A DNA stretch of 64,000 nt from Thermoplasmata archaeon (GCA_049802875.1 JBARNH010000036.1:6081-70080); one strand, 5' to 3'; shown: positions 18,146 to 62,659, counted from the first letter of the stretch. A program made the numbers and translations. The notes: generated by a model from the letters alone, not told the origin.

Positions 18146-21100
18146 ATGAGGCGGCAGTTCGTCAGCGGAATCGTCGCACTGATCCTCGTCGCGTCCGTCG
18201 CATTTCTCATTGCGGTGCCCGCCCCGAGCACCCCTCCCTCGGCAATCCCCACTCTCTCGCACCTGCAGCCGGACTCGGGCGGTGCTCCCACGATCGCCGT
18301 GACCCCGACGCTTGGACCTGAAGGCAGTACTTTCAACGTGACCGGCGCCGGATTTACCGCGAGTTCCGGGGCGAATGTCTCCTTCGACTCCAGCGTGCTG
18401 GCCCCGTTCGGGGGTTCGGACTGTACTCACTCGGGGACGAACATCACGACCAACTCTACCGGAGGATTTGCCTGTCTGTTCACGGTGCCCACCATCTCTC
18501 CCGGCTCGTACGGGGTCAACGCGACCGATCAGTCCACAACCAACGAATCGAACACGGTCTCGTTTCAAGTGACGGCCCTGACGATCGTGGTCTCCCCGTT
18601 GCAGGGGCCGGTAGGGAGCAGCGTCACCGTGACCGGCTCCGGATTCACGGTGTCATCCCCGGCAAAGGTCAGTTTCTCTTCGGTCGTTCTTACACCGAAG
18701 TCGAGCGGGGATTGTGTGGTCAGCGGCACGACCATCACGACCGACCCGAGCGGCGGTTTCGCCTGCACGTTCACTGTGCCGACTTCGACCCCAGGGGCAC
18801 ACGACATCAATGCCACCGACCTCGCCACGTCCAACTCGACTACCCCATCGACGTTCACCGTGACCACGCTATTGATCGGGACGACCCCAAGCCAAGGACC
18901 GGTGGGCAGTACATTCACCGTGACGGGCTCGGGGTTCACCGTCAGCTCGGGCGCCGAGGTGAGCTTCGACGCGACCGCGCTCGCCCCGACCGGGGGTGCA
19001 GATTGCCCGGCGACCGCGACCACCATCACGACCGACCCGAGCGGCGCCTTCTCCTGCCGCTTCACCGTCCCTTCCGAGAGCACCGGGTCGCACAACATCG
19101 TCGGAACGGACCTCGCCACCTCCAATTCTGCCAGCCCCGTTTCGTTCACCGTGACCGCTGTCGGTATCACGGTCTCGCCCCAGCAGGGCCCCCAAGGGGC
19201 GACGGTCACCGTCTCCGGGAGCGGATTTTCCGTTGACACGACGCTCGCCTCCCTCGTTGTGGCCGCGGTGACGATCACCAGCTGCCCGACGGCCGGCTCG
19301 CTGATGAGCAACGGGACGGGGGCGTTTTCCTGCGCTTTCTCCGCCCCGAGCGGGACCTCGGGAACCACGGTGACCGCCACGGACGTTGGCGGCTCGGTGG
19401 CCACGGGCACGTTCGCGGTGACCTCACTGGCCATCTCGGTGCTCCCCGCCCAGGGCCCCGAAGGGGAGGCGGTGAGCGTTTCCGGGACCGGGTTTTCGGT
19501 CTCCTCGACCCTTCGATCGGTCGTCTTTGACGGAGTCACGGAGACGATCTGCGCCGGCGGCGGGTCGATGACGACGGATTCGGCCGGGGCGATCCTGTGC
19601 GCCTTCACGGTTCCGGGCGGTACATCAGGAACGACCGTTGCCGTGACCGACTCGGGCGGCGAGTTCGCGACGGCGACCTTCGCCGTCACCGTACCCGCCA
19701 TCACGGTCCAGCCCGGAGAGGGCGGGATCGGATCGACGGTGTCGGTCAACGGACAGGGATTCTCTGTCTCCACCGGCCTCGAGTCGCTCGTGTTCGACGG
19801 GATCACGATCTCGACCTGCACCGGGGGAGGGTCGCTCACTACGGACAGCTCGGGGGCGTTTTCGTGCACATTTCCGGTGCCGAGCGGCGCCTCCGGAACG
19901 ACGGTGATTGCCACCGACGTCGGTGGGGAGTCCGGGACCGGAACCTTTACCGTGACGACGCCGGCGATAACGGTCGCCCCCGGGCAGGGCGCCGTGGGAA
20001 GCGCGTTCACCGTGACCGGGTCCGAATTCACCGCCAACTCCGGAGCGACGGTCACTTTCGACGGCAGTGCGCTCACCCCGGCCGGAGGTTCTGATTGCAC
20101 CTTCACGGGGACAACAATCCGGACGGATTCGAGCGGCGCGTTCTCGTGCACGTTCTCTGTCCCTTTGGAAGCGGGAGGGAGCGCCACCGTGCTGGTGACC
20201 GAAGGAACCAATCAGGCCAGTCGAGAGTTCGTGGTCACCCCCTCACTGGCGATCTCGATTCCGAGCGGCACGGTGGGGGCGAAGGTCAATGTCTCCGGGA
20301 ACGGCTTCGTCCCGGCGACCGCGTTCACGGTGTTTTGGAACGCCTCGACCACGCTCTGCTCCGGTAATTCGTCGGCCACGGGCGGGTTCTCCTGCCCCTT
20401 CGTGATCCCCGCAACGCCCGCGGGGTCGAACACGCTCTCCGCGGTCCAGGGCACGCTGACGGTGAACTCCGCATTCACCGTAATCCCCAGTGCGGGGATC
20501 GCTCCGAACACCGGCCCGGTGGGGAGCACCGTGGCGATCACCGGAACGGGGTTTGATGCGATGACGCGTTACACGGTCTCGTGGAACGCCTCCGTTGAGC
20601 TCTGCGCCGGTACAACGTCTCCGGTCGGGGGATTTTTCTGTACGGCCGTCGTTCCCGCGTCGAACCCGGGAGCGATCTCTCTCACCGTATCCGAGGGGAC
20701 CCACACTCCCACGTTCAGCTTCACTGTCACTCCGTCCGCTCCTCCGACCCCGGCGAGCGCGGCGGCGCCGTTCCCCTGGTGGGAAGTCGCGGTCGTCGTG
20801 GTCCTGCTCGGTGTGGTGCTCGCCGCCGTTCTGGTGTTCGGGCTCCGGCGACGGCGAAGGCCGCGGGGGCGTCCTGGCCCTCGCTCACACTCGGGAAGCA
20901 GCGTGGCGGCTTGGCAATCGACTCCACCCCCGCCGTCGGGCTCCAGCTCGCCGCCTGCAGCGGCCGGCACGCTTCCGGTGCCACCTCCGCCCGGGGTATC
21001 CGGCGCGGAACACGTCGGCGAGCCGGAGGACATCGACGTGCTGATCTCCCGCCTGGAGAAAATGAGCGTTCAGATGTTCAAGAAAACCCCGAAGGAACTG

Positions 21101-21154
21101 GGGCACCCGGACCCCGCAGGCGAAACCTCCGGGGAACCGTCGAACGAACCGTAG
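18146..21154 (+). CDS. large cell-surface protein: signal/TM, about 10 tandem Ig-like (IPT/TIG-like) repeats, C-terminal TM anchor and Pro-rich cytoplasmic tail
   Basis: The N-terminal hydrophobic segment is followed by repeats of about 95-100 aa (TVTGSGFTVSS...DC...GTTITTD.SGGF.C.FTVP...TFTVT), each with two Cys. The C-terminus reads FPWWEVAVVVVLLGVVLAAVLVFGLRRRRRP followed by a Pro/Ser-rich tail. Many N-x-S/T sequons. Confidence 0.8.
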   Translation: MRRQFVSGIVALILVASVAFLIAVPAPSTPPSAIPTLSHLQPDSGGAPTIAVTPTLGPEGSTFNVTGAGFTASSGANVSFDSSVLAPFGGSDCTHSGTNITTNSTGGFACLFTVPTISPGSYGVNATDQSTTNESNTVSFQVTALTIVVSPLQGPVGSSVTVTGSGFTVSSPAKVSFSSVVLTPKSSGDCVVSGTTITTDPSGGFACTFTVPTSTPGAHDINATDLATSNSTTPSTFTVTTLLIGTTPSQGPVGSTFTVTGSGFTVSSGAEVSFDATALAPTGGADCPATATTITTDPSGAFSCRFTVPSESTGSHNIVGTDLATSNSASPVSFTVTAVGITVSPQQGPQGATVTVSGSGFSVDTTLASLVVAAVTITSCPTAGSLMSNGTGAFSCAFSAPSGTSGTTVTATDVGGSVATGTFAVTSLAISVLPAQGPEGEAVSVSGTGFSVSSTLRSVVFDGVTETICAGGGSMTTDSAGAILCAFTVPGGTSGTTVAVTDSGGEFATATFAVTVPAITVQPGEGGIGSTVSVNGQGFSVSTGLESLVFDGITISTCTGGGSLTTDSSGAFSCTFPVPSGASGTTVIATDVGGESGTGTFTVTTPAITVAPGQGAVGSAFTVTGSEFTANSGATVTFDGSALTPAGGSDCTFTGTTIRTDSSGAFSCTFSVPLEAGGSATVLVTEGTNQASREFVVTPSLAISIPSGTVGAKVNVSGNGFVPATAFTVFWNASTTLCSGNSSATGGFSCPFVIPATPAGSNTLSAVQGTLTVNSAFTVIPSAGIAPNTGPVGSTVAITGTGFDAMTRYTVSWNASVELCAGTTSPVGGFFCTAVVPASNPGAISLTVSEGTHTPTFSFTVTPSAPPTPASAAAPFPWWEVAVVVVLLGVVLAAVLVFGLRRRRRPRGRPGPRSHSGSSVAAWQSTPPPPSGSSSPPAAAGTLPVPPPPGVSGAEHVGEPEDIDVLISRLEKMSVQMFKKTPKELGHPDPAGETSGEPSNEP
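18300..20720 (+). repeat. intragenic tandem repeats (about 290-300 bp period, about 10 copies) encoding Ig-like domains
   Basis: The periodic protein repeat is visible in translation. The antisense 548-aa ORF mirrors it. Confidence 0.7.
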
Positions 21155-21834: not shown

Positions 21835-23934
21835 GTGCTCATTCCTCCCGCGTTGGCGTTCGGAGAGCTCGTACTCCTGTTCCTGATCCCTCTCCCGCTC
21901 GGAGCCATCACCCTCCGCCTCGCGGAACGGTTCTTGGGACACGGGTTGGGCTTCTCACCTCTCGAACGCGTTTTGGTCGCTTTCTTCGCGGCGGGCACGA
22001 TCCTCTTCGTTTTCGCGGCCCTCCCGGTCGCGTGGTACGGTTGGGCCCTGATCTCGGCCGTCTTCGGGGCCGGGATGGCCGCCTTCGTGGTGATCACCCT
22101 ACGAGAGCGTGGCGCCGGCCTCCGTCCGATCCTCGCCTTCATGAAAGGCGTGCCGGGTCTCCTCCTCGTCGGGGGGACTCTCGGGCTCGTCGCTCTGGAA
22201 CTCCTCGCGACCTGGACAATCCCGTTCCCGAACACCTACGACGGAGCGTCGACCGCCGTCTGGGTGAACCTCCTTCTGGCGAATCATACGATGCCCTGGA
22301 CCCTGGCTCCCTACGCGAATTGGGGCGTCGCCTACCCTTTCGGAGCCGTCGTCTGGATGTCGATCCCCGTGGCACTGTTCGGGTGGCCGATCACCGGGGC
22401 CCCGGTGCTGCTCCCTCCGCTCTTCCTGGCCCTGACCGTCCCCTCGGCGTATGCCCTCGGGTCGCGAGTGGCCGCGGGCTCCCGACAAGCACCGGAGGGC
22501 GTCGGCCTCCTCTTCGCAGGGTTCTTCGGGCTCGTGACGGCGTGGCCCCGACTCTTCGTGGGCGGTTCGTATGACTTCATCTTCGTAACCCCCCTGTTTC
22601 TGATCTCCTTGGGCTGCCTCCCAGGTTTGCTCCGGGCGACCGGGCGGAACTGGAAAGACCTCGTCGGGGTCGGCGCGTTCGTGGGGGCGATGGTCTGCTT
22701 GGGGACCGCGGCTGCCGAGTTCCTCATCCTCGTCCTCGTGGCCTATCTTCTGATGTTCCGTCGGGAGGTGGCGACGACCCTCCGCTCGGGCTTCGCGCGA
22801 ATCGTCGGGGTCGCGCTGATCGGCTCGGCCTTCATGGTCCGGACTCTCGTCGCCCTCGCCCTATGGTACCCCTATCCCGGGCATGTGCTCACCGAGGCGG
22901 GCCAACCTCCGTATGCGACCCCGGTCTCCCCCTACCAGTTCGGGACTCGGTTAGTGACCGGTGAACTGGACCCGTTCGTCCTGTGGAAGGCGAAGCTGTC
23001 CCCGTTCCCGGCGGTCTCCATCGAGCTGCAACTGCTGTTGGCGGTCGGTATCGTACTTCTCCTGGTTCGCGCGTGGTCACCCCAGAGTCCGCTCCGAGGA
23101 TTAGTGAGCTCGCGCCTGACTCACCTCGTCGCCGCGGGGACGGCGACCGGGTTGCTACTGGTCGCCTTCCTCCTTGCCACTACCGTTCCGGGGTCTTCGA
23201 TTCAGGAGGAGGGGCTGCTCGCGTCCCTGGAAGAATCGTCGGAAATTCTGTTCCTATTTTTCTGCCTCATCGCGTTGGTCCCGCTGATCGCGGCGGTCGA
23301 GCTGCTGCGCACGGGCCGACGCGTCACGACGGGAGGAGTCGACCTCGAGGACCTTCCGTCGAAAGGTCCAACGGCGCCCACTCGGACCTCTTGGCATTAC
23401 TCTGCCCGGCGACCGTCGAGCGGGGTCACGACCGTGTTGGTGTTGGTGTTGCTCATCCCGCTGGGATCGGGCGCGTACACCTCCGTGGTCGACGGACCGG
23501 GGTACCTCCACGGTGCGGTGACGTTGACGGCCAGTGTGACCCCGAGCGATGCGGATGCGCTTCGCTGGGCCGGGGCGAACCTTCCCGGCTGCTCCCGGGT
23601 GTTGGTGGCGCCGGGCTCCGCAGCCGAGTTTCTCCCCGAATTCGCGCGAGTTTCTGTGGTCTATCCGATGCTGCCGGCCCCGGTGAACCTCTCCTATGCA
23701 CTCATTGTGGCCGGCCTCATCCTCGGCCAGTACAACTCGACCTTCCGGGCCGAACTCGTACAGCTCGAGGTCACCGAGGTGTTCGGGACCGGTATGAACT
23801 CGGCCTCGTACCTCCCCTTCGACCTTCAGCCGCTCGCCACATCGAGCGACTTCCATCTTCTGTTTCAGGAGGGCGACGCATCGATCTACGAGTTCCTCCC
23901 CGGTGCGACGGCGTCGGGCTGCGCCGTGGCCTGA
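21835..23934 (+). CDS. polytopic membrane protein (at least 12 TM) with about 200-aa extracytoplasmic C-terminal domain; possible GT-C-like glycosyltransferase
   Basis: 699 aa. Multiple TM helices span the first ~470 aa, followed by a soluble C-terminal domain. There is no WWDYG motif, so this is not a canonical AglB. Confidence 0.6.
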   Translation: MLIPPALAFGELVLLFLIPLPLGAITLRLAERFLGHGLGFSPLERVLVAFFAAGTILFVFAALPVAWYGWALISAVFGAGMAAFVVITLRERGAGLRPILAFMKGVPGLLLVGGTLGLVALELLATWTIPFPNTYDGASTAVWVNLLLANHTMPWTLAPYANWGVAYPFGAVVWMSIPVALFGWPITGAPVLLPPLFLALTVPSAYALGSRVAAGSRQAPEGVGLLFAGFFGLVTAWPRLFVGGSYDFIFVTPLFLISLGCLPGLLRATGRNWKDLVGVGAFVGAMVCLGTAAAEFLILVLVAYLLMFRREVATTLRSGFARIVGVALIGSAFMVRTLVALALWYPYPGHVLTEAGQPPYATPVSPYQFGTRLVTGELDPFVLWKAKLSPFPAVSIELQLLLAVGIVLLLVRAWSPQSPLRGLVSSRLTHLVAAGTATGLLLVAFLLATTVPGSSIQEEGLLASLEESSEILFLFFCLIALVPLIAAVELLRTGRRVTTGGVDLEDLPSKGPTAPTRTSWHYSARRPSSGVTTVLVLVLLIPLGSGAYTSVVDGPGYLHGAVTLTASVTPSDADALRWAGANLPGCSRVLVAPGSAAEFLPEFARVSVVYPMLPAPVNLSYALIVAGLILGQYNSTFRAELVQLEVTEVFGTGMNSASYLPFDLQPLATSSDFHLLFQEGDASIYEFLPGATASGCAVA

Positions 23935-40320: not shown

Positions 40321-43300
40321 ATGTACGCGCGCTGCCGGTCGCCAACGAACCCGAAAATCGGTTTGGTCCGGCTCGGGTTTCTGATAGCCCTCGGGGTCGG
40401 TCTCCTCGCCTCCACCGGCTTGGTAGTGTCGGCCGCCTCGTCGCCGGCCCCAGGTACCGTGAGGGGCAGCCCTCCGGTGGCGAGCGATCTCATGTTGATC
40501 GCGGGAACCATCCTCCCTGCATCCCCGAGCATCGACAACGGTCAATCGGTGCTGCTCTCTTCCGCGGTTTCGGGCGGTACCCCACCGTACACCTACGCCT
40601 GGTACGAGTCCCCCGACGGGGCCGGCCCGTGCCCGGGAGACGGGGGACAGGTCGGCGGAAATTCTTCGACCGTCGATACGGGAGCGTTGACTTCGGGGGG
40701 CGGCCCCTATTACTATTGTTACACGGTGACCGACAACAGTTCGGACGCCGCGGGGTCGGCCTGGGACCCGCTCACGGTGAATCCCGTGCTCGGCGCGGGC
40801 GCCGCCACGCCGGCGAGCCCGGTCATCGACTACGGGCAGTCGGTCACCCTCACGGCGAACCCGTCCTCCGGATCGCCGCCGTATAGCGACCAATGGTACT
40901 GGTCCTCGACCAACGGAGGAAGTTGCGGTTCGGGGACACCGCTCAAGGTCGGATCGAGTCAGTCGACGGGCTCGGAGATTACGGGACCGGGGACGTACTA
41001 CTACTGCTACCTCGTGACGGACAGTTCCGTGGGGGATCAGGGTGCCGAGAGCGCCAGTTCGGGCTGGGACGGCATCACCGTGAACTCCGCTCTCTCCGCG
41101 CCCGCAATCTCCGTCGCCCCGATGACGATCGACTCGGGGCAAAAGGCAACGCTCTCCACGACCACTTCGTTCACCGGAGGCACCGGTCCGTACAGCTGCG
41201 AGTGGCTGAGTGAAGCGCCCGGGGGTAACTACGCCAACCTCGGCAGTTCGTTCGGCTGCTCCCCTGGTGACCTGCCCACCGTGGGCACGGGCACTCTCTC
41301 CCCGACCGGCACTTGGAGTTTCGAGCTGCAGGTGACCGACAGTTCCGGGACCCCGAATACCGCGACCTCCGGCGCGGTGACCGTAGCGGTGGCGTCCGCG
41401 CTCGGAACGCCCTCGGTCAACCCGCTCAACCCGTCGATCGATGTGGGTCAGTCGGTAGCGTTCACGTCCGACTGGTCGGGCGGACTCCCCGATTACATGG
41501 CGACACTGAACTCCGGCTCGTCGGCGACCTGCAGCGCGGACACGGTCGAGGTGCAGACGCTGTCTTCACTGCCAGGGGGGAGCGCCTCGTTCGCCGCCGT
41601 TTCGCCGGCTTCCGATATCGACTACTGCATCGTGGTGACCGACTCGTCAACGGGTGCCCCGGCGGCGAGCGAGACCTCGTCCGTGAGCCGGGTGGTAGTC
41701 CACTCCGCTCTCACGGCACCCGCCGCACCGATGCCCAGTGCCGCGTCGCTGGATGCGGATCAATCGATGACGGTGGGCGGAACTATCCCGTCGACCGGCA
41801 CACCGAGCTACGCTTGGCAGTGGCTGGTCTCGATCAACGGAGGCTCCTACAAGGACGCCACGCAGTGCGGGACGTCGGCGAGCGGCAGCGGTGCCTCTGC
41901 TGGCGCCTCGGAGACTTGCTCGATTCCGATCAACACGCTGACGGCCAGCAGCTCGTACAATTTCGAGCTGCAGGTCACGGACGGCGCGTCGTCACCCGAA
42001 TCCGCGACCTCCCCGGCCTCTTCGACCGTGACCGTGAACTCCGCGTTCTCCGCGGGGTCGGTCTCCCCCAGTTCGCCCTCGATTGATTCCGGCCAATCGA
42101 TCACCCTATCGACCAACCCCTCCGGCGGCACGACACCGTACAGTTATCAGTGGTATTCCTCCGCCAAGGGATCCGGCGCGTGCGACGCCGGGACCACGCA
42201 CGGAACGGGTGCGACCCAGGTCGTGACTCCCTCCGCGACCACCCACTATTGCTACACTGCTTCGGACAGCTCTCATCCGCCAGTGATGCAGAGTTCGAGC
42301 TGGGACGGGGTTACGGTGAACCCCGCGCTGTCGTCCGGAGCCGCCAGCCCCGGATCGCCGACGATCGACTTCGGGCAGTCGATCACCCTGAGCGGAAACC
42401 CAGCGAGCGGGACGCCCCCGTATTCGTACCAGTGGTACGCGTCCGACAGCAGTTCGGGAAGCTGTGCTTCCGGAACCCCTCTCGGGACGAATCCGACCCA
42501 GGCCACCGGTACGGAGATCACCGGTCCGGGGTCGTTTTACTTCTGCTATGTCGCGGCGGACAGTTCCCTGGCGGATGGCGGCCACGAGTCGGCTCCGTCG
42601 GCGTGGGACCGGGTGACGGTGAATCCCACACTCTCGGCTCCCAGTGCCCCGACCGTCACCGCCCCCGCCTTGGATGTCAACCAGGCGTTGAGCGCGTCGG
42701 GAACCGTCCCTTCGACGGGGACCGCGCCCTACGGTTGGCAGTGGCTCATGGCCGTGAACGGAGGGACCTACGCAGACGCGAGCCTCTGTGCGGTCGCTCA
42801 CGGGTCGGGGGCCCCCGCGGGCGGCACCGAAACATGCGGCATCGCCGGCGGTGCGCTCACGACGGGGGACAACTACGCCTTCGAGCTCAAGATCACGGAC
42901 ACTGCACCGACGCCTGCTACGGCCGTCTCCGCCGCATCGTCAACCGTGACGGTCCACCCCGCGTTAACCGCCGCCGGGGCGCCGACCCCGAGTTCGACCG
43001 CCCTCGATGCCGACCAGGCCATGACGGTCACCGGAAAGCTTGCGTCGACGGGGACGCCGAACTACGCCTGGCAGTGGCTGATCTCGATCAACGCCGGCGC
43101 CGACGTGGACGCGGCGCAGTGCGGAGCATCGGCGAGCGGAACCGGGGCGGTCGGCGGAGCCACGGAGACCTGCACCATCCCCGGCGACACCCTGACGGCC
43201 AGCACGTCGTACACGTTCGAATTGAAGGTGACGGATAGTGCGTCGACACCCGAGGTGACGACGTCGGCGGCTTCGTCGAAAGTGACCACCAGCTCGGCGC

Positions 43301-45315
43301 TCACGGCCGGCCTGGCGACGCCGATCTCCCCGGCCGTCGACGTCGGTCAATCCGTGACCCTGTACTCGAATCCGTCCGGCGGAACCCTGCCCTACAGCCT
43401 CCAATGGTATTCATCGACCTCGGGGACCGGGTCCTGCAACTCGGGCACCCCGCTCGGGACCGCCGCAACGCAACCACTCTCCCCCACGACGAGCGCGTAC
43501 TATTGCTACTCGGTGACGGACAGCGCCCACTCGAAGGTGACGCAACTCTCGGGGTGGAACGGGGTATTGGTAGATCCCACTCTCACCCCGCCCGCGACGC
43601 CGATCTCGAGCACCACGGCGCTCGACGCCAATCAAGCGTGGACGATCACCGGGATCATTCCGTCGACGGGGACGCCCACGTACTCCTGGCAGTGGCTGAT
43701 CTCCGTCGCGGGCGGCGCCTTCGCGAACGCGACCCAGTGCGCGACGAACAACGGCACCGGGGCCCAACGCGAGGCCCCCGAAAGCTGTACCATCGCTCCG
43801 AACACGTTGACGTCGGGGGAAAGCTATGCCCTTGAATTTCTGGTGAGGGACAATGCCACGCTTCCCGAGACCGGGACGTCCCCCGCGTCGCCGACGCTGG
43901 CGGTCTCTCCCGCACTGACAGCGCCCCCCGCGCCGATCCCCAGCGCGACGCTGCTCGATTCGGACCTGCCGTTGACGGTCACCGGAATCATCCCAATGAC
44001 CGGGACGCCCGCCTACTCCTGGCAGTGGCTGATCTCCGTTGGCGGCGGGGCCTACGTGGACGCGACGGAGTGCTCGGTGAACAGTGGCTCGGGCGCAGCG
44101 GCCGGCGCGACGGAGATCTGCAACATCACGGCCGGAACCCTGACCGCGGGCCAGACGTACGCGTTCGAGTTCCTGGTGACCGACAGCGCCTCGACGCCGG
44201 AGTCCCAACCGTCGGCGGCCTCCCCGACCGTCAGCCCGAATCCGGCCTTCTCCGCGGGCTCTGCCTCACCGGGCGCCCCCGCCATCGATTCGGGTCAATC
44301 TGTCACGTTGACCGCCAACCCCTCCGGGGGCTCGGGCGCCTACGCCTATCAGTGGTACTCGGGGAGCACGGCGAGCGGCTGTACCGGATTGGGCTCGCCG
44401 ATCAGCGGGGCGACCGCCTCGACGTTTGCCGCTTCGCCCACGACCTCGACGTACTATTGCTACGTGGTCGAGGACACGACCTCGGCCACCGCGACCTCCC
44501 TCGCAGTGCAAATCATCGTGAATCCGGCGCTCACCCCGTCCAACTCCCCGACCAGCAGTGCCACGAATGTGGCCGCCAACGAGGAGTTGACCTTGACCGC
44601 GGGGATGCCTTCCACGGGGACTCCGGACTACTCGTGGCAGTGGCTCGTCTCGGTGGACGGCGGCCCGTTCGAGGACGCCACCCAATGCGCGCTGAACACC
44701 GGATCGGGCGCGATCGCGGGCGCCACGGAGAGCTGTGCGATCGCCCCTGGGACCCTGACCGCGGGGGATACGTACGCCTTTGAGCTTCGGATCTCCGACA
44801 GTTCCGCGACCCCTGCCACTCAGACCTCGCTCGCGACCGCGACGATCACCGTCGGGGCGGCTTCGGCATCACCCCCCGCTGCCAGCTTTCCCTGGTTCTG
44901 GGTCTATGCCGCTATCACTCTCGCAGCGATCGCCGCGATCGTGGTCCTGACTCTCTTCACGTGGCGGAAGCGCCGCCGCGCTCCGCCGAGCGTCCCCCCC
45001 ACGGTCACGGGAGTCGCGGAAGAATCACCCTCGGCTGCCAGCGCGCCGGCGCGTCCGGGTCCGGTCTACCTCGAGATGCCGCCGGCCTATGCCCCCCCAG
45101 CCCCGCCGGCATCCCGTCCAACGGTGGCCGCCGAAGCCGTGGTCTCCCCACCAGCTCCTCCCCCTACTCCGACTCGAGTGCCCGAGTCCGAAGTCGATCA
45201 GGTGATGGCCGAGATCGAGAGGATCAGCACCGAGATCGCGAAGCGACCCCCCAAAAAGGGGGCCGATGGTACCACCAACGGCGGGGCCTCGTCGCCGAGC
45301 GCGGCGGACGAGTGA
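40321..45315 (+). CDS. giant (1664 aa) cell-surface protein with alternating A/B tandem repeats, C-terminal TM anchor and Pro-rich cytoplasmic tail
   Basis: Signal/TM at the N-terminus. About 7 A repeats (NPSGGTPPYSYQWYSS...GSC.SGTPLG...YYCY.VTDS...W.GVTVNP) alternate with about 7 B repeats (PSTGTP.Y.WQWL.S.NGG.Y.DA.QC...E.C.I..TLT....Y.FEL.VTD). The C-terminus reads FPWFWVYAAITLAAIAAIVVLTLFTWRKRRR followed by a Pro-rich tail. Confidence 0.85.
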   Translation: MYARCRSPTNPKIGLVRLGFLIALGVGLLASTGLVVSAASSPAPGTVRGSPPVASDLMLIAGTILPASPSIDNGQSVLLSSAVSGGTPPYTYAWYESPDGAGPCPGDGGQVGGNSSTVDTGALTSGGGPYYYCYTVTDNSSDAAGSAWDPLTVNPVLGAGAATPASPVIDYGQSVTLTANPSSGSPPYSDQWYWSSTNGGSCGSGTPLKVGSSQSTGSEITGPGTYYYCYLVTDSSVGDQGAESASSGWDGITVNSALSAPAISVAPMTIDSGQKATLSTTTSFTGGTGPYSCEWLSEAPGGNYANLGSSFGCSPGDLPTVGTGTLSPTGTWSFELQVTDSSGTPNTATSGAVTVAVASALGTPSVNPLNPSIDVGQSVAFTSDWSGGLPDYMATLNSGSSATCSADTVEVQTLSSLPGGSASFAAVSPASDIDYCIVVTDSSTGAPAASETSSVSRVVVHSALTAPAAPMPSAASLDADQSMTVGGTIPSTGTPSYAWQWLVSINGGSYKDATQCGTSASGSGASAGASETCSIPINTLTASSSYNFELQVTDGASSPESATSPASSTVTVNSAFSAGSVSPSSPSIDSGQSITLSTNPSGGTTPYSYQWYSSAKGSGACDAGTTHGTGATQVVTPSATTHYCYTASDSSHPPVMQSSSWDGVTVNPALSSGAASPGSPTIDFGQSITLSGNPASGTPPYSYQWYASDSSSGSCASGTPLGTNPTQATGTEITGPGSFYFCYVAADSSLADGGHESAPSAWDRVTVNPTLSAPSAPTVTAPALDVNQALSASGTVPSTGTAPYGWQWLMAVNGGTYADASLCAVAHGSGAPAGGTETCGIAGGALTTGDNYAFELKITDTAPTPATAVSAASSTVTVHPALTAAGAPTPSSTALDADQAMTVTGKLASTGTPNYAWQWLISINAGADVDAAQCGASASGTGAVGGATETCTIPGDTLTASTSYTFELKVTDSASTPEVTTSAASSKVTTSSALTAGLATPISPAVDVGQSVTLYSNPSGGTLPYSLQWYSSTSGTGSCNSGTPLGTAATQPLSPTTSAYYCYSVTDSAHSKVTQLSGWNGVLVDPTLTPPATPISSTTALDANQAWTITGIIPSTGTPTYSWQWLISVAGGAFANATQCATNNGTGAQREAPESCTIAPNTLTSGESYALEFLVRDNATLPETGTSPASPTLAVSPALTAPPAPIPSATLLDSDLPLTVTGIIPMTGTPAYSWQWLISVGGGAYVDATECSVNSGSGAAAGATEICNITAGTLTAGQTYAFEFLVTDSASTPESQPSAASPTVSPNPAFSAGSASPGAPAIDSGQSVTLTANPSGGSGAYAYQWYSGSTASGCTGLGSPISGATASTFAASPTTSTYYCYVVEDTTSATATSLAVQIIVNPALTPSNSPTSSATNVAANEELTLTAGMPSTGTPDYSWQWLVSVDGGPFEDATQCALNTGSGAIAGATESCAIAPGTLTAGDTYAFELRISDSSATPATQTSLATATITVGAASASPPAASFPWFWVYAAITLAAIAAIVVLTLFTWRKRRRAPPSVPPTVTGVAEESPSAASAPARPGPVYLEMPPAYAPPAPPASRPTVAAEAVVSPPAPPPTPTRVPESEVDQVMAEIERISTEIAKRPPKKGADGTTNGGASSPSAADE
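40500..44830 (+). repeat. intragenic tandem repeats (A/B pair of about 630 bp, about 7 copies)
   Basis: The periodic ~105-aa repeat pairs are visible in translation. Confidence 0.7.
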
Positions 45316-45386: not shown

Positions 45387-47462
45387 TCAGACTGCACCGG
45401 GCGGAGGCCCGCCGGCGCTCGGAGGGGGCGGTGACGAATCCCCCGGACCCTCCGACCAAGGGGAGCCGGGATTGCTGGCGGGCGGCGCGGGCGGTGTCAT
45501 CGCCGCGGGGGTCGGAACGGCCTCAACCCCTCCCTTTCGTCGCCGAGACACTAGGATGCCCACCATCAAGCCCACGATCCCCGCCACGATGATAAGGAGC
45601 AGTTCCTCGACCGTGCTCAGCGGCGACGAGCTCCCGGACGTGCTGGTGCCACCCTTCGTCGCGGGAGGGACCGCGAAGAATCCGATCCCTACGTTCTCGC
45701 CTCCCCCATGGACCGCTACCGAACCCTGCGTCGGGGTGTCGTTGTATCCACCCACGGCCGCGACGACGTAGGAGAACGTCCCGTTCGGCTCGGTGAACGT
45801 GATCGTGCCGTTGTTTGGACTGGAATGGGCGACGCCTCCAAGGGTCACCGACCACGCGGAGGTCCCGGGCAGTCCGCTCGAGGTGAACGTCACGGTGTAG
45901 GTGACTTCGGTCATCGTCAAGTTTACGGTGAGGTTTCCGTCATCGACTGACGCGACCCCCGACGCGGGGGTGACGGTGTATCCGGGGATGGCGGGGACGG
46001 TCCAAGAATAACTTCCGTTCTCGCGGTCCACCTCGACGCTCGTTCCGGTGCTCGCGTACGGCGTCGAGCCCACGAGGACCGACCAGGCGGTCGTGCCCGG
46101 GAGACCTTTCGCCTGGAACGAGATCCGATAGGTCGACGGGATGAACTCCAGGACGCGGTTGTTCCCGGTGTCGGCCACCCAGAGCGCGCCGTTCGGCCCC
46201 ACGAAGGCACCGAACGGTCCGGCGATCGCCGTGGCGTTGTCGCCAGATACATCGGCGGTCAGATTCGTCTGTCCGACGACCACCGACGCGTTCTCGAACG
46301 TGGAGAACGGCGGGAGGAATTCGACCACGCGGTTCCCCGCAAAGTCGGAGACCCACAGGTTCCCGCGCGGATCGACGGAGACGCTGACCGCAATGCCGAA
46401 CGCGCCCGCTCCCGTGGCGGTGTTGCCGGTGAACGAGGACTGGCCGAGAAGGTGGGTCGCCCCTTCCCCCGTCGAGAACGGAGCATCAAATCCGAGGACG
46501 CGATCGTTACCGGAGTCCGCGACCCACAGAATACCCCCGGAATAGTCGATGCCTTGGGGGTCGGAGAGGTTCGATGCGGAGAGCCCATATCGGCTCGTCG
46601 TAAAGTTGGATTGGCCTAGCACCAGGGAGGCGTTCATTCCGTTGGAGAACGGAGGGACGAATTCGACCACGCGGTCGTTTTCCGCGTCCACGACCCAGAG
46701 GTCACCGTGCGAGTCGAGGGTCAGGCCCACCGGGCGCGAGAGATTCTGTGCCGAAGTTCCCGACTGGTCACCGTTGAAGGTGCTCTGCCCCAACACTAGC
46801 AACGCCGCCTGGCCGTCAGTAAAGGGGGGTACAAACTCCAGGACGCGGCTGTTGTCGAAATCCGACACCCAAAGATCGCCGTGAGAGTCGAAGGTACAGG
46901 CGGCCGGAAGTCGCGTGCCCGTGGCGGTCGCATTGGGGCCTTTCGCCGTGAAGTTCGGCTGGCCAAGGACGATCGACGCCGCCTCCCCCGTGGAGAATGG
47001 CGGGGTGAACTCGGTGATCCGGTTGTCGCCCAGGCTCGGTACCCAGAGGTTGCCCCGAGAGTCGTTGCACGGGAATTCCACGTCGGGCCCGAAGGAGGTG
47101 GCATTGGCGCTCCCCGTCTGGTCGGTGGCGTTCCAGACCGTCCCATTCCATCGAGTCGTCAGATTGTTTGCACCCAGCGCGATGCTCGCGGCCATGTGGG
47201 TATAGAACGGGTTGGGAGGAGGTGAGGGGAGGGGAGCGATCGGGAGATGGAGTGCGGCAGGAGCCGCCACCGGCGGGTCTGCGGCGGCCAACGAGGGGCC
47301 GAGGGAACTGAGGAGCAGAGCGAGTACGCCGAACACGGTCCCGTACGTCATCAGCCGCGACATGGACGAATAACTTCGAACTTCTCCCTTATAATGCATC
47401 CGACGTGATTTCGGTGCCCTCGGCGCCGGTTCTCTGGGGTCGGGGGGATTTCCGGGACTCAT
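45387..47462 (-). CDS. secreted NHL-repeat beta-propeller protein with two C-terminal 'GLPxGTxWSV' domains, TM anchor and Pro-rich tail
   Basis: Signal peptide MTYGTVFGVLALLLSSLGPSLAAA. Six blades of the form LWV.D..N.RV.EF.PPFS.G..A..VLGQ.NFT. These are followed by two YTVTFTSSGLPGTSAWSV...NG.Y repeats, a TM helix and a Pro-rich C-terminus. Very many N-x-S/T sequons. Confidence 0.82.
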   Translation of the reverse strand: MSPGNPPDPREPAPRAPKSRRMHYKGEVRSYSSMSRLMTYGTVFGVLALLLSSLGPSLAAADPPVAAPAALHLPIAPLPSPPPNPFYTHMAASIALGANNLTTRWNGTVWNATDQTGSANATSFGPDVEFPCNDSRGNLWVPSLGDNRITEFTPPFSTGEAASIVLGQPNFTAKGPNATATGTRLPAACTFDSHGDLWVSDFDNSRVLEFVPPFTDGQAALLVLGQSTFNGDQSGTSAQNLSRPVGLTLDSHGDLWVVDAENDRVVEFVPPFSNGMNASLVLGQSNFTTSRYGLSASNLSDPQGIDYSGGILWVADSGNDRVLGFDAPFSTGEGATHLLGQSSFTGNTATGAGAFGIAVSVSVDPRGNLWVSDFAGNRVVEFLPPFSTFENASVVVGQTNLTADVSGDNATAIAGPFGAFVGPNGALWVADTGNNRVLEFIPSTYRISFQAKGLPGTTAWSVLVGSTPYASTGTSVEVDRENGSYSWTVPAIPGYTVTPASGVASVDDGNLTVNLTMTEVTYTVTFTSSGLPGTSAWSVTLGGVAHSSPNNGTITFTEPNGTFSYVVAAVGGYNDTPTQGSVAVHGGGENVGIGFFAVPPATKGGTSTSGSSSPLSTVEELLLIIVAGIVGLMVGILVSRRRKGGVEAVPTPAAMTPPAPPASNPGSPWSEGPGDSSPPPPSAGGPPPGAV

Positions 47463-57266: not shown

Positions 57267-59864
57267 TTGGCAACTCCGACCAATCCATCCGCGGCCTCGT
57301 ACCCTGCGCCGATGAATCCGCCTCCACCGTCCGTTCCTCCGCCGACGCCTCCCCCGCCCCGAAAGGGAATGTCCAGCGGCTTGAAAGTGGCCATCATCGC
57401 GGTCGTGGTGGTCATCATCGTGGTCATCGGGCTGGGCTTCTCGGGGCTGATCCCTGGGTTCAAGCTGGGCGGGTCGAGCTCGACCAGCCCGAGCGCCGCG
57501 CAGTACGTGGTCACCTTCTCCGAGACCGGACTGCCGTCGGGCACCTCTTGGTCCATCACGTTCGCGGGCTCTACGGAGTCTGCGGCGACGTCCACGATCA
57601 CGTTCTCGGAGAAGAACGGTACGTATTCTTTCACGGTCGGAGCCGTGACCGGGTTCGCGGCCACCCCAACCTCCGGTAGCCTCACCGTCAATGGGGCGGC
57701 GTTGAACCAAGGAATCACGTTCGCCAGCGGCTACAGCGTCACCTTCACCGAGTCGGGGCTGCCGTCCGGAACCATGTGGTCGGTCACCCTCAGCGGCTCG
57801 ACTCTCTCATCGACCTCGGAGTCCATCGCCTTCACCGAAGCGAACGGCATGTATTCCTACACGATCCCGTCTGCCACGGGGTACACGGCCAGTCCCGCGT
57901 CGGGAACCGTGACGGTGAGCAGCGCACCCCAGTCCGTGACCGTCACGTTTACGTCCATTCCTCCGGGCGAGTACGTGGTCACCTTCACGGAGAGCGGACT
58001 CCCGACCAGCACCAGCTGGTCGGTCACCCTGCAAGGGAGCTTGCAATCCTCGACGACCAGCGCCATCACGTTCGACGAGATGAATGGGTCCTATCCCTAC
58101 ACGGTGGGCACGGTGAGCGGGTACACCGCGACCCCATCGAGCGGTAACGTGCCCGTCTCCGGAGGGCCAGCGTTCGTCACGATCACATTCACCACCTCCA
58201 CTTCTGGGCTGGGCGGGCCCCAGTACGCGGTGACCTTCGATCAGACCGGGTTGCCGGCGGACGAGCTGTGGAGCGCCGGTGCCGCTCCGGTGTCGAACTT
58301 CCTGCTGGAGTACGGAGCGGCGAGCGTAGGGCCGAGTATCGAGTTCTCGGCACCGGACGGCGCCTACTACTGGTCCACGGGTACGAATGCGTACGGCCCG
58401 AACGGAAACCCCTACGTTACGGAACCCTCGGGCGGAGAGTTTAACGTGACCGGGTCCCCCGTGACAATCCCGTTCGCATTCCTTCCCACGTACTCGGTCA
58501 ACTTCACTGAGACCGGCCTCCCCATGGACGCCAGTTGGAACGTGACGCTGAACGGGACGACCACTTGCTATGCTACTGGTCCCGAAAACTGCACATCGGA
58601 CGCCACGTGGACGAACGGTACCCTCCCGTTCGTGGTCGCCGCGTTCGGCTACACCCCATCCCCGGAGTCGGGGTCGGTCACCGTCTCCGGTGCCAATGTC
58701 TCCACGCCAATCTCGTTCACCTCCCTCACATTGTACTCGGTGGAGTTTACCGAGTCCGGTCTGGCTTCCGGAACGGACTGGTCCGTCTATCTCAATGGAA
58801 CGCTTGGGTTCGGCACCGCGCCGGGGAACATCGTGCTCACCGGTTTCCCGAATGGCATCTACCCGTTCGATGACGTGACCACGAACGGCTACTATTCGGC
58901 GAGTCCGAGTTCCGGCAGCGTCACTGTCGCTTCGGCGCCCGGCAGCCAGGCCATTGTGTTCACGGCGCTTTCCACCTACACCGTGACGTTCAGCGAAAGC
59001 GGCCTTGCATCAAGCACCGGTTGGGAGGTCTACCTCAACTTGAGCTACGGATCCGCTTCCGCCCCGACGACGATACCGCTGTCGGCTCCGGTCGGTAACA
59101 ACACGTGGACCGCATACGCCTCGGGGTACTACGACCAGTACGGGTACGTGATCGTAACGACCGGGGCGAACCCGGTGACCGTCACGTTCACGGCCCTGCC
59201 TACCCCCCCGCTCACGTACATCGTGACGTTCAACGAAACCGGCCTTCCGTCGTCATACGACTACTGGTCGGTGTACATGGTCAACAATGGGCTCGATACC
59301 ACGTGCAGCGATTCCAATGCGGCGGGCGCTAACATCAGTTGCTTTGTGCCCGACGGATACTATTCCTGGGTGGCCACCGCCGACTTTTCACCGAACTACA
59401 CTGCAAGTCCCACGTCCGGCTATGTGACCGTGACCGGGGCCACGATCATCGTGAACGTCACGTACGTGAACACGACCGCCCTGGACGAGTACCTGGCGGC
59501 ATTCGTCGAGTGGTCGTACTGGTACTTTGGTGAGGGTGGGATCCCCAACGGATCGAGCTGGAGCGTTACGCTCGGGGGAGTCACCCAGAGTTCGCAAGGG
59601 ATGTTCATTTACTTCCTTGAACCGAACGGTACCACACAAGCCTACACCATCACACCGCCCGCAGGGTATGTGGTAGTGCCGAGCTCCGGGAACATTACTG
59701 GCTACACGCAGACTTACCAGGGCTCCTACGAGATCTGGTACTACCCGACCGTAGTCGTGGTGTTCGCCGCGGACCCCCCGTTGGAGCTTTCGGGGAACTC
59801 TATTGCGACTTCCCTATCCAACGCCCCCCATGTCTTCGCGATAGCGGCGACACGCGACTCCTGA
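57267..59864 (+). CDS. type-II-anchored surface protein: Pro-rich cytoplasmic N-tail, TM, about 12 tandem ~70-aa 'GLPxGTxWSV' repeats
   Basis: The N-terminus is Pro-rich (MATPTNPSAASYPAPMNPPPPSVPPPTPPPP) followed by a TM helix (VAIIAVVVVIIVVIGLGF). The repeats read Y.VTFTE.GLP.GT.WSVTL.G...S....I.F.E.NG.Y.Y.V....GY.A.P.SG.V.V. There are about 20 N-x-S/T sequons. The track's first codon is non-ATG. The ATG at codon 16 is an alternative start. Confidence 0.8.
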   Translation: MATPTNPSAASYPAPMNPPPPSVPPPTPPPPRKGMSSGLKVAIIAVVVVIIVVIGLGFSGLIPGFKLGGSSSTSPSAAQYVVTFSETGLPSGTSWSITFAGSTESAATSTITFSEKNGTYSFTVGAVTGFAATPTSGSLTVNGAALNQGITFASGYSVTFTESGLPSGTMWSVTLSGSTLSSTSESIAFTEANGMYSYTIPSATGYTASPASGTVTVSSAPQSVTVTFTSIPPGEYVVTFTESGLPTSTSWSVTLQGSLQSSTTSAITFDEMNGSYPYTVGTVSGYTATPSSGNVPVSGGPAFVTITFTTSTSGLGGPQYAVTFDQTGLPADELWSAGAAPVSNFLLEYGAASVGPSIEFSAPDGAYYWSTGTNAYGPNGNPYVTEPSGGEFNVTGSPVTIPFAFLPTYSVNFTETGLPMDASWNVTLNGTTTCYATGPENCTSDATWTNGTLPFVVAAFGYTPSPESGSVTVSGANVSTPISFTSLTLYSVEFTESGLASGTDWSVYLNGTLGFGTAPGNIVLTGFPNGIYPFDDVTTNGYYSASPSSGSVTVASAPGSQAIVFTALSTYTVTFSESGLASSTGWEVYLNLSYGSASAPTTIPLSAPVGNNTWTAYASGYYDQYGYVIVTTGANPVTVTFTALPTPPLTYIVTFNETGLPSSYDYWSVYMVNNGLDTTCSDSNAAGANISCFVPDGYYSWVATADFSPNYTASPTSGYVTVTGATIIVNVTYVNTTALDEYLAAFVEWSYWYFGEGGIPNGSSWSVTLGGVTQSSQGMFIYFLEPNGTTQAYTITPPAGYVVVPSSGNITGYTQTYQGSYEIWYYPTVVVVFAADPPLELSGNSIATSLSNAPHVFAIAATRDS

Positions 59865-60046: not shown

Positions 60047-62659
60047 TTGGCAGCTCCGAGCAATCCATCCGCGGCCTCGTACCCTCCGCCGATGAATCAG
60101 CCTCCCCCACCGGCCCCACCGCCGTCCCCTCCCCCGAAGCGAAAGGGACTGTCGAAGGGAGTGCTCGTGGCGATTGCCGCCGTCGTCGTGGTCGTCATCG
60201 TGGTTCTCGGACTGGGTTTCTCTGGGCTGATCCCCGGGTTCAAGTTGGGCGGGTCGAGCTCAGGCGGCGCGAGCGGCCCATCGTACGTGATCACGTTCAC
60301 CGAAACCGGACTACCGTCGGGGACGACCTGGTCGATCACCCTCGCCGGTAGCGTGGCCTCGTCGGCCACGCCCACCATCACGTTCTCGGAGAAGAACGGT
60401 AGCTATTCATACTCCGTCGGGTCCGTACCAGGGTTCGCCGCGAACCCAACGTCGGGGACGGTGGGCGTCAACGGGCTGGCAGTGAACGAGGCCATCACGT
60501 TCCAGGCCGGATACGCCGTCACCTTCACCGAATTCACGCTACCCTCAGGCACAATGTGGTCGGCCACCCTGAACGGGTCGACTCTCTCCTCGACGTCGGG
60601 CTCCATTGCGTTCACCATCCCGAACGGGGTGTATGCCTACTCGATCCCGACGGTGTCCGGGTATACGGCAAGTCCCGCGTCGGGATCGGTCACAGTGAGC
60701 GGCGTCGCCCAATCGGTGCCGATCACCTTCACTCCGGTTCCCGCGGGAGAGTATGCGGTCACGTTCACCGAGAGCGGTCTTCCCGGCGGCACGAGCTGGT
60801 CGGTCACCCTCGGGGGAACCCTCCAGTCCTCGACGACCACCACCATCACTTTCAACGAGAACAACAACACCTATCCTTACACCGTAGGCGCGGTCAGCGG
60901 CTACACCGCGGCCCCATCGAGCGGGAACGTCGTCGTCTCCGGCGGGCCGGCGTCCGTTACGATCACGTTCACCACCTCCTCCAACCCGTTGGCCGGGCCG
61001 CAGTACGCGGTGACATTCGACCAGTCCGGGTTGGCTGCGGACGAGCTCTGGAGCACCTACGCCTCGGTCAAGACAGATTTGTTCTTGTACTACGGGGCGA
61101 CGAGCGCAGGAGCCAGCATGGAGTACTCGGCCCCGGACGGCACGTACTACTGGTCCGTCTCCACGGACGCAATGGGCGCGAACGGCAACCCGTACCAGCC
61201 GGACCCGGCCGGAGGGACGTTTACGGTGTCCGGCGGCCCGGTGACAATCCCGGTCGCCTTCCTGCCGACGTACTCGGTCAACTTCACCGAGACCGGTCTG
61301 ACTCCGGGAGCCCCCTGGAATGTGACATTGAATGGGACAACCATTTGCTATGGCACGGCTCCCACGAATTGCACAACGGATACCACGTGGACGAACGGTA
61401 CCCTTTCGTTCGTGGTCGCCGCCCTTGGCTACACCGCCTCCCCGGCGACGGGGATGATCACCGTATCGGGCGGTAACGTCTCTCAGGCGATCTCGTTCAC
61501 TTCCGTGTCCACGTACATGGTGACGTTCACCGAGACGGGCCTGGCTTCCGGAGTGTATTGGTACGTCACCTTGGACGGTGTGCCTGGTTATGGCAACGCG
61601 CCATCGACCATCGTGTTCCCCGACTTCCCGATCGGAGACTTCCCGTTCTATGACGTGTCCTCGGCCGGCTACTATTCGGCGAGCCCGACATCCGGCAGCG
61701 TGACCGTCACCTCGGGCGGCGGAAGCCAGGCGATCGTATTCACGGCGATCACTCTCTACCCAGTGACCTTCACCGAGCACGGGCTGACGTCGGGCAGCCC
61801 GTGGACCGTCGAGCTCAACGAGAGCGAAGGAAATGCGGCCGCGCCGACGCCGATTTCTGTGTCGGCCCCCGCCGGAAACAACAGTTACGTCGCCTACTCC
61901 ACGGGGTACATCACTCAATCTGGGTACGAGATCGTAACGACAGGGACGAACGCGGTGTCCGTCACTTTCTCCCTTCCGCCGCCCCCACCTACCCTGTATA
62001 ACGTGACGTTCAACGAAACCGGCCTTCCGATGACCGGTGGTTGGGGGATCGAGCTGCAGAATAATGGGGCGTATATCTCGCTGTACACTACATGCTCGAA
62101 TTCCTCGGGGGCCGGCACCAATCTCAGTTGCTACGTGCCGGACGGCAATTATTCATGGTCGGCTTCCACGCTGTACACACCCAATTACACCGCATCCCCG
62201 ACGGCGGGCTATCTGACCGTTGACGGCGCGGGCACGATCGTCATCGTTTCGTTCGTCAACACAACGGCATCGGGCCAGTACTTAGTGGCGTTCGCCGAGG
62301 ATGCCTACTCGGAATTCGGTATCGGCGGGACACCCAACGGATCGACGTGGAGCGTGACGCTCGGGGGAGTGACCCATACTTCGCAGGGGATGTACATCGC
62401 CTTCCTCGCGACGAACGGCTCCACCGAAGCGTATACGATCACCCCGCCCGCGGGATACGTGGTGGTACCGAGTTCGGGAAGCATCACCGGCTACACCTCA
62501 TGGTACCAGGGCGACCTATCCGTGGAAGCGTACGCCTTTGTGAGCGTGGTGTTCGCGGCTACGGACCCCCCGCTCGAGGTCCCGGCGAGCGAAATTGCGA
62601 GCAGCCTCTCGGGCGCTCCCCACGGGTTTGCAATGGCCCCGCCCCGGGACGAGTCCTAG
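60047..62659 (+). CDS. paralogous type-II-anchored repeat surface protein (tandem duplicate of 57267..59864)
   Basis: Same architecture and collinear sequence (about 70% identity by eye). The N-terminus MAAPSNPSAASYPPPMNQPPPP matches the first copy, and the upstream 50 bp is also conserved. Confidence 0.8.
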   Translation: MAAPSNPSAASYPPPMNQPPPPAPPPSPPPKRKGLSKGVLVAIAAVVVVVIVVLGLGFSGLIPGFKLGGSSSGGASGPSYVITFTETGLPSGTTWSITLAGSVASSATPTITFSEKNGSYSYSVGSVPGFAANPTSGTVGVNGLAVNEAITFQAGYAVTFTEFTLPSGTMWSATLNGSTLSSTSGSIAFTIPNGVYAYSIPTVSGYTASPASGSVTVSGVAQSVPITFTPVPAGEYAVTFTESGLPGGTSWSVTLGGTLQSSTTTTITFNENNNTYPYTVGAVSGYTAAPSSGNVVVSGGPASVTITFTTSSNPLAGPQYAVTFDQSGLAADELWSTYASVKTDLFLYYGATSAGASMEYSAPDGTYYWSVSTDAMGANGNPYQPDPAGGTFTVSGGPVTIPVAFLPTYSVNFTETGLTPGAPWNVTLNGTTICYGTAPTNCTTDTTWTNGTLSFVVAALGYTASPATGMITVSGGNVSQAISFTSVSTYMVTFTETGLASGVYWYVTLDGVPGYGNAPSTIVFPDFPIGDFPFYDVSSAGYYSASPTSGSVTVTSGGGSQAIVFTAITLYPVTFTEHGLTSGSPWTVELNESEGNAAAPTPISVSAPAGNNSYVAYSTGYITQSGYEIVTTGTNAVSVTFSLPPPPPTLYNVTFNETGLPMTGGWGIELQNNGAYISLYTTCSNSSGAGTNLSCYVPDGNYSWSASTLYTPNYTASPTAGYLTVDGAGTIVIVSFVNTTASGQYLVAFAEDAYSEFGIGGTPNGSTWSVTLGGVTHTSQGMYIAFLATNGSTEAYTITPPAGYVVVPSSGSITGYTSWYQGDLSVEAYAFVSVVFAATDPPLEVPASEIASSLSGAPHGFAMAPPRDES

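Follow-up and report, generated by a model that had tools for sequence, protein, structure and literature searches.

Two large surface proteins encoded in one stretch of a Thermoplasmata archaeon genome (GCA_049802875.1, JBARNH010000036.1:6081-70080; 64,000 nucleotides, here called the window, with positions counted from its first letter) end in the same C-terminal module, composed of an aromatic motif, a transmembrane (TM) helix, an arginine-rich cluster, a disordered proline-rich linker and a terminal amphipathic helix with a basic patch. Protein A (1002 amino acids, aa; 18146..21154, + strand) joins a signal-like N-terminus and Ig-like (GxPGS/TIG-like) repeats to this anchor and tail, and protein B (1664 aa; 40321..45315, +) carries them behind a signal-like N-terminus and Ig_3/PKD-like repeats. 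The module, the order of its elements, its conservation pattern, its carriers and its phyletic restriction are matters of direct observation, and one lineage-wide anchoring module common to A and B is supported, on ectodomains between which no similarity was detectable (best BLASTP E 2.7). The best explanation, to which a probability of about 0.55 is given, is that A and B are type-I single-pass surface glycoproteins whose lineage-specific module comprises an uncleaved anchor and a tail ending in a docking helix.

Architecture of the C-terminal module

In protein A the module opens with PFPWWE (aa 875-880; 20768..20785, +) at the outer edge of the TM helix VAVVVVLLGVVLAAVLVFGL (aa 881-900, 20 aa; 20786..20845, +), and its FPWW is kept in six of seven A-type relatives. 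The helix is followed by the basic cluster RRRRRPRGRP (aa 901-910; 20846..20875, +), by a disordered Pro/Ser/Gly-rich linker of 48 aa with 27% Pro (aa 911-958; 20876..21019, +), inside which lies tail motif 1, AAWQSTPPPP (20906-20935, +), and by the terminal amphipathic helix with its basic patch, EPEDIDVLISRLEKMSVQMFKKTPKE (aa 959-984; 21020..21097, +), 18 aa from the C-terminus. Protein B presents SFPWFW (aa 1522-1527; 44884..44901, +), with SSFPW(I/L/F/V)W recurrent among its homologues, then the TM helix VYAAITLAAIAAIVVLTLFTW (aa 1528-1548, 21 aa; 44902..44964, +), the basic cluster RKRRR (aa 1549-1553; 44965..44979, +), a disordered Pro/Ala-rich linker of 68 aa with 31% Pro (aa 1554-1621; 44980..45183, +) that includes tail motif 2, GPVYLEMP (45058-45081, +), and the terminal helix with its basic patch, ESEVDQVMAEIERISTEIAKRPPKK (aa 1622-1646; 45184..45258, +), again 18 aa from the C-terminus. 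After the TM helix there remain 102 residues in A and 116 in B.

The original prediction had placed five C-terminal elements in the same order in both proteins, and all of them were located where it had put them. It had also described a shared FPW(W/F)W; an aromatic motif does stand at the TM start of both, but A reads FPWW-E and B reads FPWF-W, so that the common part is only FPW[WF]. The linker, given there as 60-100 aa, measures 48-68 aa.

Both proteins have the features of a type-I bitopic anchor, namely an N-terminal signal-like segment (hydrophobic stretch at aa 5-24 in A and aa 13-39 in B), a single C-terminal TM helix and an Arg cluster after it. Because of this combination and the positive-inside rule, the tail is probably cytoplasmic, and both proteins would have an N-out, C-in topology. 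AlphaFold2, run on the tail of B with a 15-row alignment, returned a predicted local distance difference test score (pLDDT) of ~93 for the TM helix, 48-59 for the linker and up to 86 for the C-terminal helix at tail residues 105-124; the tail is thus predicted to adopt a helix-disorder-helix layout.

The elements of the module differ in how strongly they are constrained. Between B and its 79%-identical orthologue P0004, identity is 80% in the ectodomain, 85% over FPW and TM helix, 46% in the linker, 84% in the terminal helix and 61% in the C-terminal end. Between A and four A-type relatives, the corresponding values are 38-45%, 31-62%, 19-42%, 77-85% and 22-33%. The terminal helix is therefore the most conserved segment of the whole protein among A-type proteins, which fits a specific binding function.

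The shared tail and the helix motif

When the 64 kb window is translated in all six frames, the pattern [FWY]PW[WFY] is met at two places only, which are the starts of the C-terminal TM helices of A and B. On pairwise comparison of A with B alone, a shared terminal helix would be doubtful; the best 24-mer common to the two lies at the same distance from the C-terminus in each, exactly 18 residues. An independent profile, made without A and B from the 60 C-terminal residues of 24 other proteins, was searched against 1078 six-frame open reading frame (ORF) pieces of the window. The E values were 5e-15 for B and 3.9e-4 for A, against 0.17 for the next match. Since a profile built without A and B recovers A, its tail is a divergent but genuine copy, and the C-terminal similarity survives a proper test in which A and B are the only sequences retrieved from the window. 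A word-indexed homologue search with the A tail alone gave two weak matches only, and the same kind of search with a 51-column tail alignment gave none although true members are in the database, a result attributed to the word index and not to absence.

The helix was then represented by a 31-column profile and compared with 1.84 billion cluster representatives at a cut-off of E<=1e-3. In all, 112 clusters matched, six of them at E<=1e-10; the profile detects only well-conserved copies and misses divergent ones. Protein A came back as match P0208 among the representatives, its own motif having been included in the query profile. The search for further proteins with this tail has made the observation larger than first noted.

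From 123 unique cores the consensus reads x-x-x-E-P-D-I-D-S-L-M-A-E-L-D-K-I-S-G-E-I-L-K-R-x-P-K-K, a 20-residue acidic amphipathic helix followed by a K/R-x-P-K-K basic patch. Conservation is highest at L14 (95%), S18 (93%), D6 (92%), D8 and E13 (89% each) and D15 (85%), followed by I17 (81%), K23 (80%), I7 and K27 (79% each) and P26 and K28 (74% each), so that polar and hydrophobic positions are conserved about equally. Of 110 full-length matches, 109 have 8-27 residues (median 14) between the end of the motif and the C-terminus. The helix is amphipathic, with a hydrophobic moment (muH) of 0.48-0.58 and a mean hydrophobicity of ~0; in B and in the consensus it has a net charge of -3 and is followed by the basic patch. 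The A-type variant reads EPEDIDALIARLERMSVQMFKKTPK(E/Q)L. A membrane-binding amphipathic helix was considered and is disfavoured, because an acidic polar face with a net charge of -3 argues against simple lipid binding.

Carriers, phyletic range and gene neighbourhoods

The window holds two carriers. Across the collection the tail was found in three host classes and one soluble protein, as far as the 31-column profile reaches. The classes are giant B-type Ig/PKD-repeat proteins, A-type proteins and mini-proteins of ~180-200 aa. A mini-protein joins a signal-like N-terminus, RRIVPxALGxAMLAVVxAAxLxPNxG, to an ectodomain of 25-35 aa, in which C-x-Y-G-x-C is frequent, and to the FPWW-TM-RRRR segment with the full tail; the genes of these bare anchors lie at about 5600-6250 in loci L006-L024 (for example L011:5611-6243, +). 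Ectodomain repeats and tail recombine, as shown by P0202, whose mixed ectodomain has A-type and B-type repeats, and by P0138 and P0139, in which A-like repeats are joined to the canonical tail. P0175 (330 aa) has no apparent TM helix and bears AYLETPEDVG and the helix DIDSLIADLDKIGGEILRRAPKK in mid-sequence; it is apparently soluble, with a Zn-ribbon-like N-terminus and a charged coiled-coil-like region after the helix.

Ninety non-redundant tails include the TM helix. Trp stands at the TM start in 72 of them, with FPW in 27, RRRR in 56 and at least three consecutive R/K in 73, and the family consensus at the TM start is Phi-P-x-W. The linker between TM helix and terminal helix measures 49-180 residues across the family; it often bears tail motif 1, W-[QE]-[EG]-G-P, soon after the Arg cluster, and also tail motif 2, P-A-Y-[LI]-E-T-P-E-D-V-G. 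The same tail as in B recurs among B-type homologues, some of which have cytoplasmic tails of 630-675 residues. In the B-type proteins P0028, P0031 and P0065, tails of that length are Pro/Ala/Glu-rich and the terminal motif is degenerate (e.g. NSLLWKL...RPKKPE). The tail is missing from the Nitrososphaerales proteins among the B-type homologues and from many more of these homologues, which have either no terminal TM helix or a plain TM-plus-basic anchor.

A genome scan, with one genome per GTDB species and a narrow tail alignment as query, gave 23 loci, all titled 'Thermoplasmata archaeon' (metagenome-assembled genomes, MAGs) and mostly from peat and soil projects; 19 of the 23 are mini-protein genes. 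Their neighbourhood runs PFOR-beta, p685, Polysacc_synt-type flippase, mini-protein, p84, VTT/DedA, amidohydrolase, AIR-synthase-like, EamA, PolB. With the A-type tail as query, 16 loci were obtained from metagenomes. All of these A-type proteins carry a close variant of the PEDIDALIARLERMSVQMFKK helix, and those that span the membrane region keep the Trp motif at the TM start, mostly as FPWW. Several metagenome loci share the gene order GHMP kinase, NTP transferase, A, NUDIX, p699. Neither tail type is present in viral contigs.

Two further families accompany the carriers. Directly downstream of the mini-protein gene lies p84, a Cys-containing protein of 81-99 aa (L011:6301-6555, +, and equivalents in L006-L024), which is a candidate functional partner; its signature is EIEVGIALSIxLGRxRPxVxCGGCxxPLEFEGIPARTN, and it has no family match. 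The p699/p685 proteins (685-699 aa) are multi-TM proteins with a C-terminal soluble domain, found in the window at 21835-23934 (+) and at L011:1449-3506 (-), L025:11904-13997 (-) and L035:5819-7945 (+). In the window and at no fewer than three metagenome loci they adjoin A-type genes. In addition, 13 Thermoplasmata genomes have a p699 paralog (phmmer 4e-52, BLASTP 3e-21) at a distance of two genes from the mini-protein gene. No Pfam, NCBIfam or PDB profile matches p699/p685, and a single-sequence structure model of p699 reached a pLDDT of 40; a GT-C-like glycosyltransferase is an unproven possibility for this family.

No Pfam or NCBIfam model covers the tails of A and B, the mini-proteins, p84, P0175 or p699, a PDB profile search with the helix motif returned chance-level matches only, and full-text literature searches gave no description of this tail. 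The helix module is absent from the family databases and the literature searched, and among named sources it is confined to Thermoplasmata.

Comparison with known anchoring and docking systems

Tripartite sorting signals such as LPXTG, PEP-CTERM, PGF-CTERM, GlyGly-CTERM and MYXO-CTERM consist of a short motif, a TM helix and a short Arg-rich cytoplasmic end (PMC11980579). The module resembles the PGF-CTERM and PEP-CTERM types in its N-terminal signal, in a motif directly before the C-terminal TM helix and in the cytoplasmic Arg-rich cluster after it (RRRRR in A, RKRRR in B). It differs from them in the motif, which is Phi-P-x-W/FPW and not PGF, PEP or LPXTG, in the ~100-220 residues that run on from the basic cluster to the conserved helix, and, compared with archaeosortase and exosortase signals, in the few host classes seen to carry it. 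Neither a signature motif (PGF, PEP, PEF, VPXXXP etc.) nor the terminal position of a PGF-CTERM signal was found, and no NCBIfam/TIGRFAM sorting-domain model matched A, B or the neighbouring NHL-repeat protein at E<=0.01. No exosortase or archaeosortase family turned up among the window ORFs scanned, which represent 64 kb of the genome only. Thus, of the resemblance to PGF-CTERM proposed in the original prediction, the TM helix with its following Arg cluster stands, while the absence of the PGF motif, the absence of a sorting-domain match and the long extension speak against it; with 100-220 residues after the Arg cluster, the module falls outside the PGF-CTERM definition.

Other parallels are analogies. 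FtsZ has a variable disordered C-terminal linker and a conserved C-terminal peptide, the 'grappling hook', that binds FtsA, ZipA or SepF. The tail would be similar in its variable Pro/Ala-rich disordered linker and in a short acidic-hydrophobic helical end peptide followed by basic residues, but its tether hangs from a membrane protein and not from a tubulin-like GTPase, and there is no sequence relationship. ESCRT-III proteins end in MIM1 helices, with the consensus (D/E)xxLxxRLxxL(K/R) at the C-terminus, which bind MIT domains. The module may likewise be compared to MIM1 as a C-terminal acidic amphipathic helix followed by basic residues, and the A-type variant L-x-x-R-L-x-x-M resembles the MIM1 core L-x-x-R-L-x-x-L. 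Membership in the MIM1 (Vps4/MIT) class was nevertheless rejected, as E13 (89%) occupies the key Arg position and R is found there in 8% overall, in the A-type variant only; in addition, a search of the PDB with the profile of the helix motif retrieved no ESCRT-III chain. The layout of a large repeat ectodomain, single TM helix, basic juxtamembrane residues and disordered tail with docking motifs also recalls the tails of integrins, cadherins and apicomplexan TRAP, from which the module differs in its lack of homology and its prokaryotic host. We know of no cytoskeletal adaptor for such archaeal tails.

Proposed mechanism and alternative explanations

In the proposed mechanism, a Ser/Thr-rich stalk would lead to FPW, placed where the membrane meets the outside, a single TM helix would cross the membrane, an Arg4-type cluster would stop transfer, and the disordered linker and the terminal helix would follow inside. 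The anchor would stay uncleaved. The Pro/Ala/Gly/Ser linker would serve as a flexible tether, and the terminal helix would be a peptide that docks to a partner, cytoplasmic or membrane-peripheral, which the surface proteins have in common; docking would position, cluster or mechanically couple these proteins. The mini-protein of ~190 aa would be a bare version of the same module. Docking is favoured because the polar positions of the helix are as fixed as the hydrophobic ones, its acidic face is poor for lipid binding, and the cassette also occurs in P0175 without an apparent TM helix.

Several points weigh against this explanation. The match of the A helix to the general profile is weak (16.6 bits). 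The partner of the putative docking helix is hypothetical, and the uncleaved state of the anchor is an inference. With only three host classes found, common descent and domain shuffling within one superfamily would explain part of the sharing. The heptad-like hydrophobic pattern of the helix would let self-association fit as well as a separate partner. Lastly, Haloferax ArtA can cleave a centrally located tripartite signal, that of HVO_0405 (PMC7157517).

On a rival view there is nothing specific to explain: a generic stop-transfer anchor, made of an aromatic belt and positive-inside Arg residues, would be combined with GC-driven low complexity, Pro/Ala/Gly/Arg richness would be what a disordered segment is expected to show at 65% GC, and the helix similarity would be chance or neutral inheritance. 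In its favour, a BLASTP comparison of the two tails finds nothing significant (E 7-15), and the best ungapped 24-mer scores 46, a value reached in 169 of 5000 shuffles (p ~0.03). The view is very improbable, because the independent profile singles out A and B in the window, the motif recurs in 112 clusters with a fixed spacing from the C-terminus, and the helix is far better conserved than the flanking linker or the ectodomain. A different account keeps the uncleaved anchor and lets the helix act without a separate partner, either through short coiled-coil self-association, for which hydrophobic residues at positions 2, 5/6, 9, 12 and 16/17 of DIDSLMAELDKISGEILK provide heptad-like spacing, or through a fold-back on the membrane or the Arg cluster, in which the acidic helix could pair electrostatically with the basic patch beside it and the juxtamembrane Arg4. 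It is unlikely, though it retains some weight: ~2.5 heptads are generally short for a stable coiled coil, a net charge of -3 with a mean hydrophobicity near 0 is poor for lipid binding, the conserved polar residues D6, D8, E13, D15 and S18 suggest a specific heterologous interface, and the cassette also occurs in P0175, which has no apparent TM helix.

The anchor may also be a processed sorting signal, in which FPxW-TM-Arg4 would be recognised by a sortase-like enzyme (archaeosortase, rhomboid or similar) and cut near FPW; the ectodomain would then be re-anchored or released, and the remaining TM-plus-tail stub would be a by-product or, in resemblance to the free-standing mini-protein, would have its own function. 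The order of motif, TM helix and Arg residues does match the described tripartite signals (PMC11980579), Trp at the TM start, FPW and RRRR recur among the 90 tails, and the mini-protein has the appearance of such a stub, equipped with a signal peptide of its own. HVO_0405, in which a tripartite signal precedes a long C-terminal cytoplasmic part, demonstrates that such a layout can be cleaved, and since ArtA cuts it centrally, a long extension alone cannot exclude processing. HVO_0405 is, however, described as a strain-specific fusion of two genes (PMC7157517) and thus no conserved design, whereas the extension of the module is kept across >100 clusters, with the strongest constraint at its end. 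Described signals end short and Arg-rich, but in this module the chain goes on past the Arg cluster for 49-180 or more residues, up to the best-conserved segment. Furthermore, no curated C-terminal sorting-domain model matches, the scan of window ORFs gave no candidate enzyme of the exosortase/archaeosortase family, and the three host classes seen are not many unrelated targets. Processing is accordingly rated as quite unlikely, and the uncleaved anchor with a docking helix is preferred.

Other features of the window

The window has a GC content of 65%. The sequence of protein B is that of 'MAG: hypothetical protein WA547_06420 [Thermoplasmata archaeon]' (100% identity), and a TBP gene lies on the same contig. 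With a GC content at third codon positions (GC3) of 0.81-0.83 over 1002 codons in A and 1664 in B, both ORFs are real genes. An antisense ORF of 548 aa within A (18565-20211, -), with a GC3 of 0.83, was rejected as a shadow of the GC3-rich frame and is no gene. Gene A lies in a sugar-nucleotide and glycosyltransferase cluster with a GHMP kinase, nucleotidyl transferases, a NUDIX protein, RmlC- and RmlD-type enzymes and a GT2; gene B adjoins the gene of an NHL-repeat surface protein, with GT2 and epimerase genes nearby. Scans of the window for tRNA and Rfam families were empty. Two paralogous gene pairs (28900-31622, -, and 52325-54870, -) each contain a GT87/PIG-U-like multi-TM gene that overlaps a partner gene, and this second gene encodes a secreted or anchored protein of 400-436 aa without family match.

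The original prediction had extended Pro-rich cytoplasmic tails to the NHL protein and to two tandem paralogous surface proteins, and this is borne out. The C-terminus of the NHL protein (45390..45602, -) has a TM helix, SRRRK and a 48-aa tail with 33% Pro and no terminal helix; its SPWSEGPG bears a faint resemblance to tail motif 1. The tandem paralogs are of type II, each with a Pro-rich N-terminal cytoplasmic end before an N-terminal TM helix and no tail helix (57267..57374, +, and 60047..60154, +), and Pro makes up 43-48% of these ends. The control value is 5.8%, taken from ten enzymes and the TBP of the window. The independent tail profile found the terminal helix neither in the NHL protein nor in either paralog. 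The Pro-rich theme is likely to be at least partly compositional, a property of disordered segments in a 65% GC genome. In addition, a ~77-aa repeat, Y-x-V-T-F-x-E-x-G-L-P-x-G-T-x-W-S-V-T-L, is common to the C-terminal part of the NHL protein (45387-47462, -) and both paralogs (57267-59864, +, and 60047-62659, +; BLASTP 2e-29).

Implications for the Thermoplasmata cell surface

Archaeal surface proteins are otherwise held by plain C-terminal TM anchors or by cleaved, lipidated sorting signals. The module would add a third anchoring design, in which a tripartite-looking anchor is combined with a long disordered tether that is most conserved at its end. The motif is a specific marker of a set of proteins, and it could seed a family model for >100 unannotated clusters, including the mini-protein gene. 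If the helix docks a partner, it would offer a handle on how Thermoplasmata organise and couple their surface proteins from the inside, together with a 25-residue bait peptide for finding that partner. Tentatively, and at less than even odds, it may be proposed that peat and soil Thermoplasmata couple outside to inside, with Ig-repeat adhesins and the mini-protein docking via the same helix to a single machine in the cytoplasm, perhaps a factor of the cytoskeleton, division, vesicle budding or trafficking. If this were true, the module would correspond in a prokaryote to the tails of adhesion receptors, or would invert the principle of the FtsZ C-terminal peptide.

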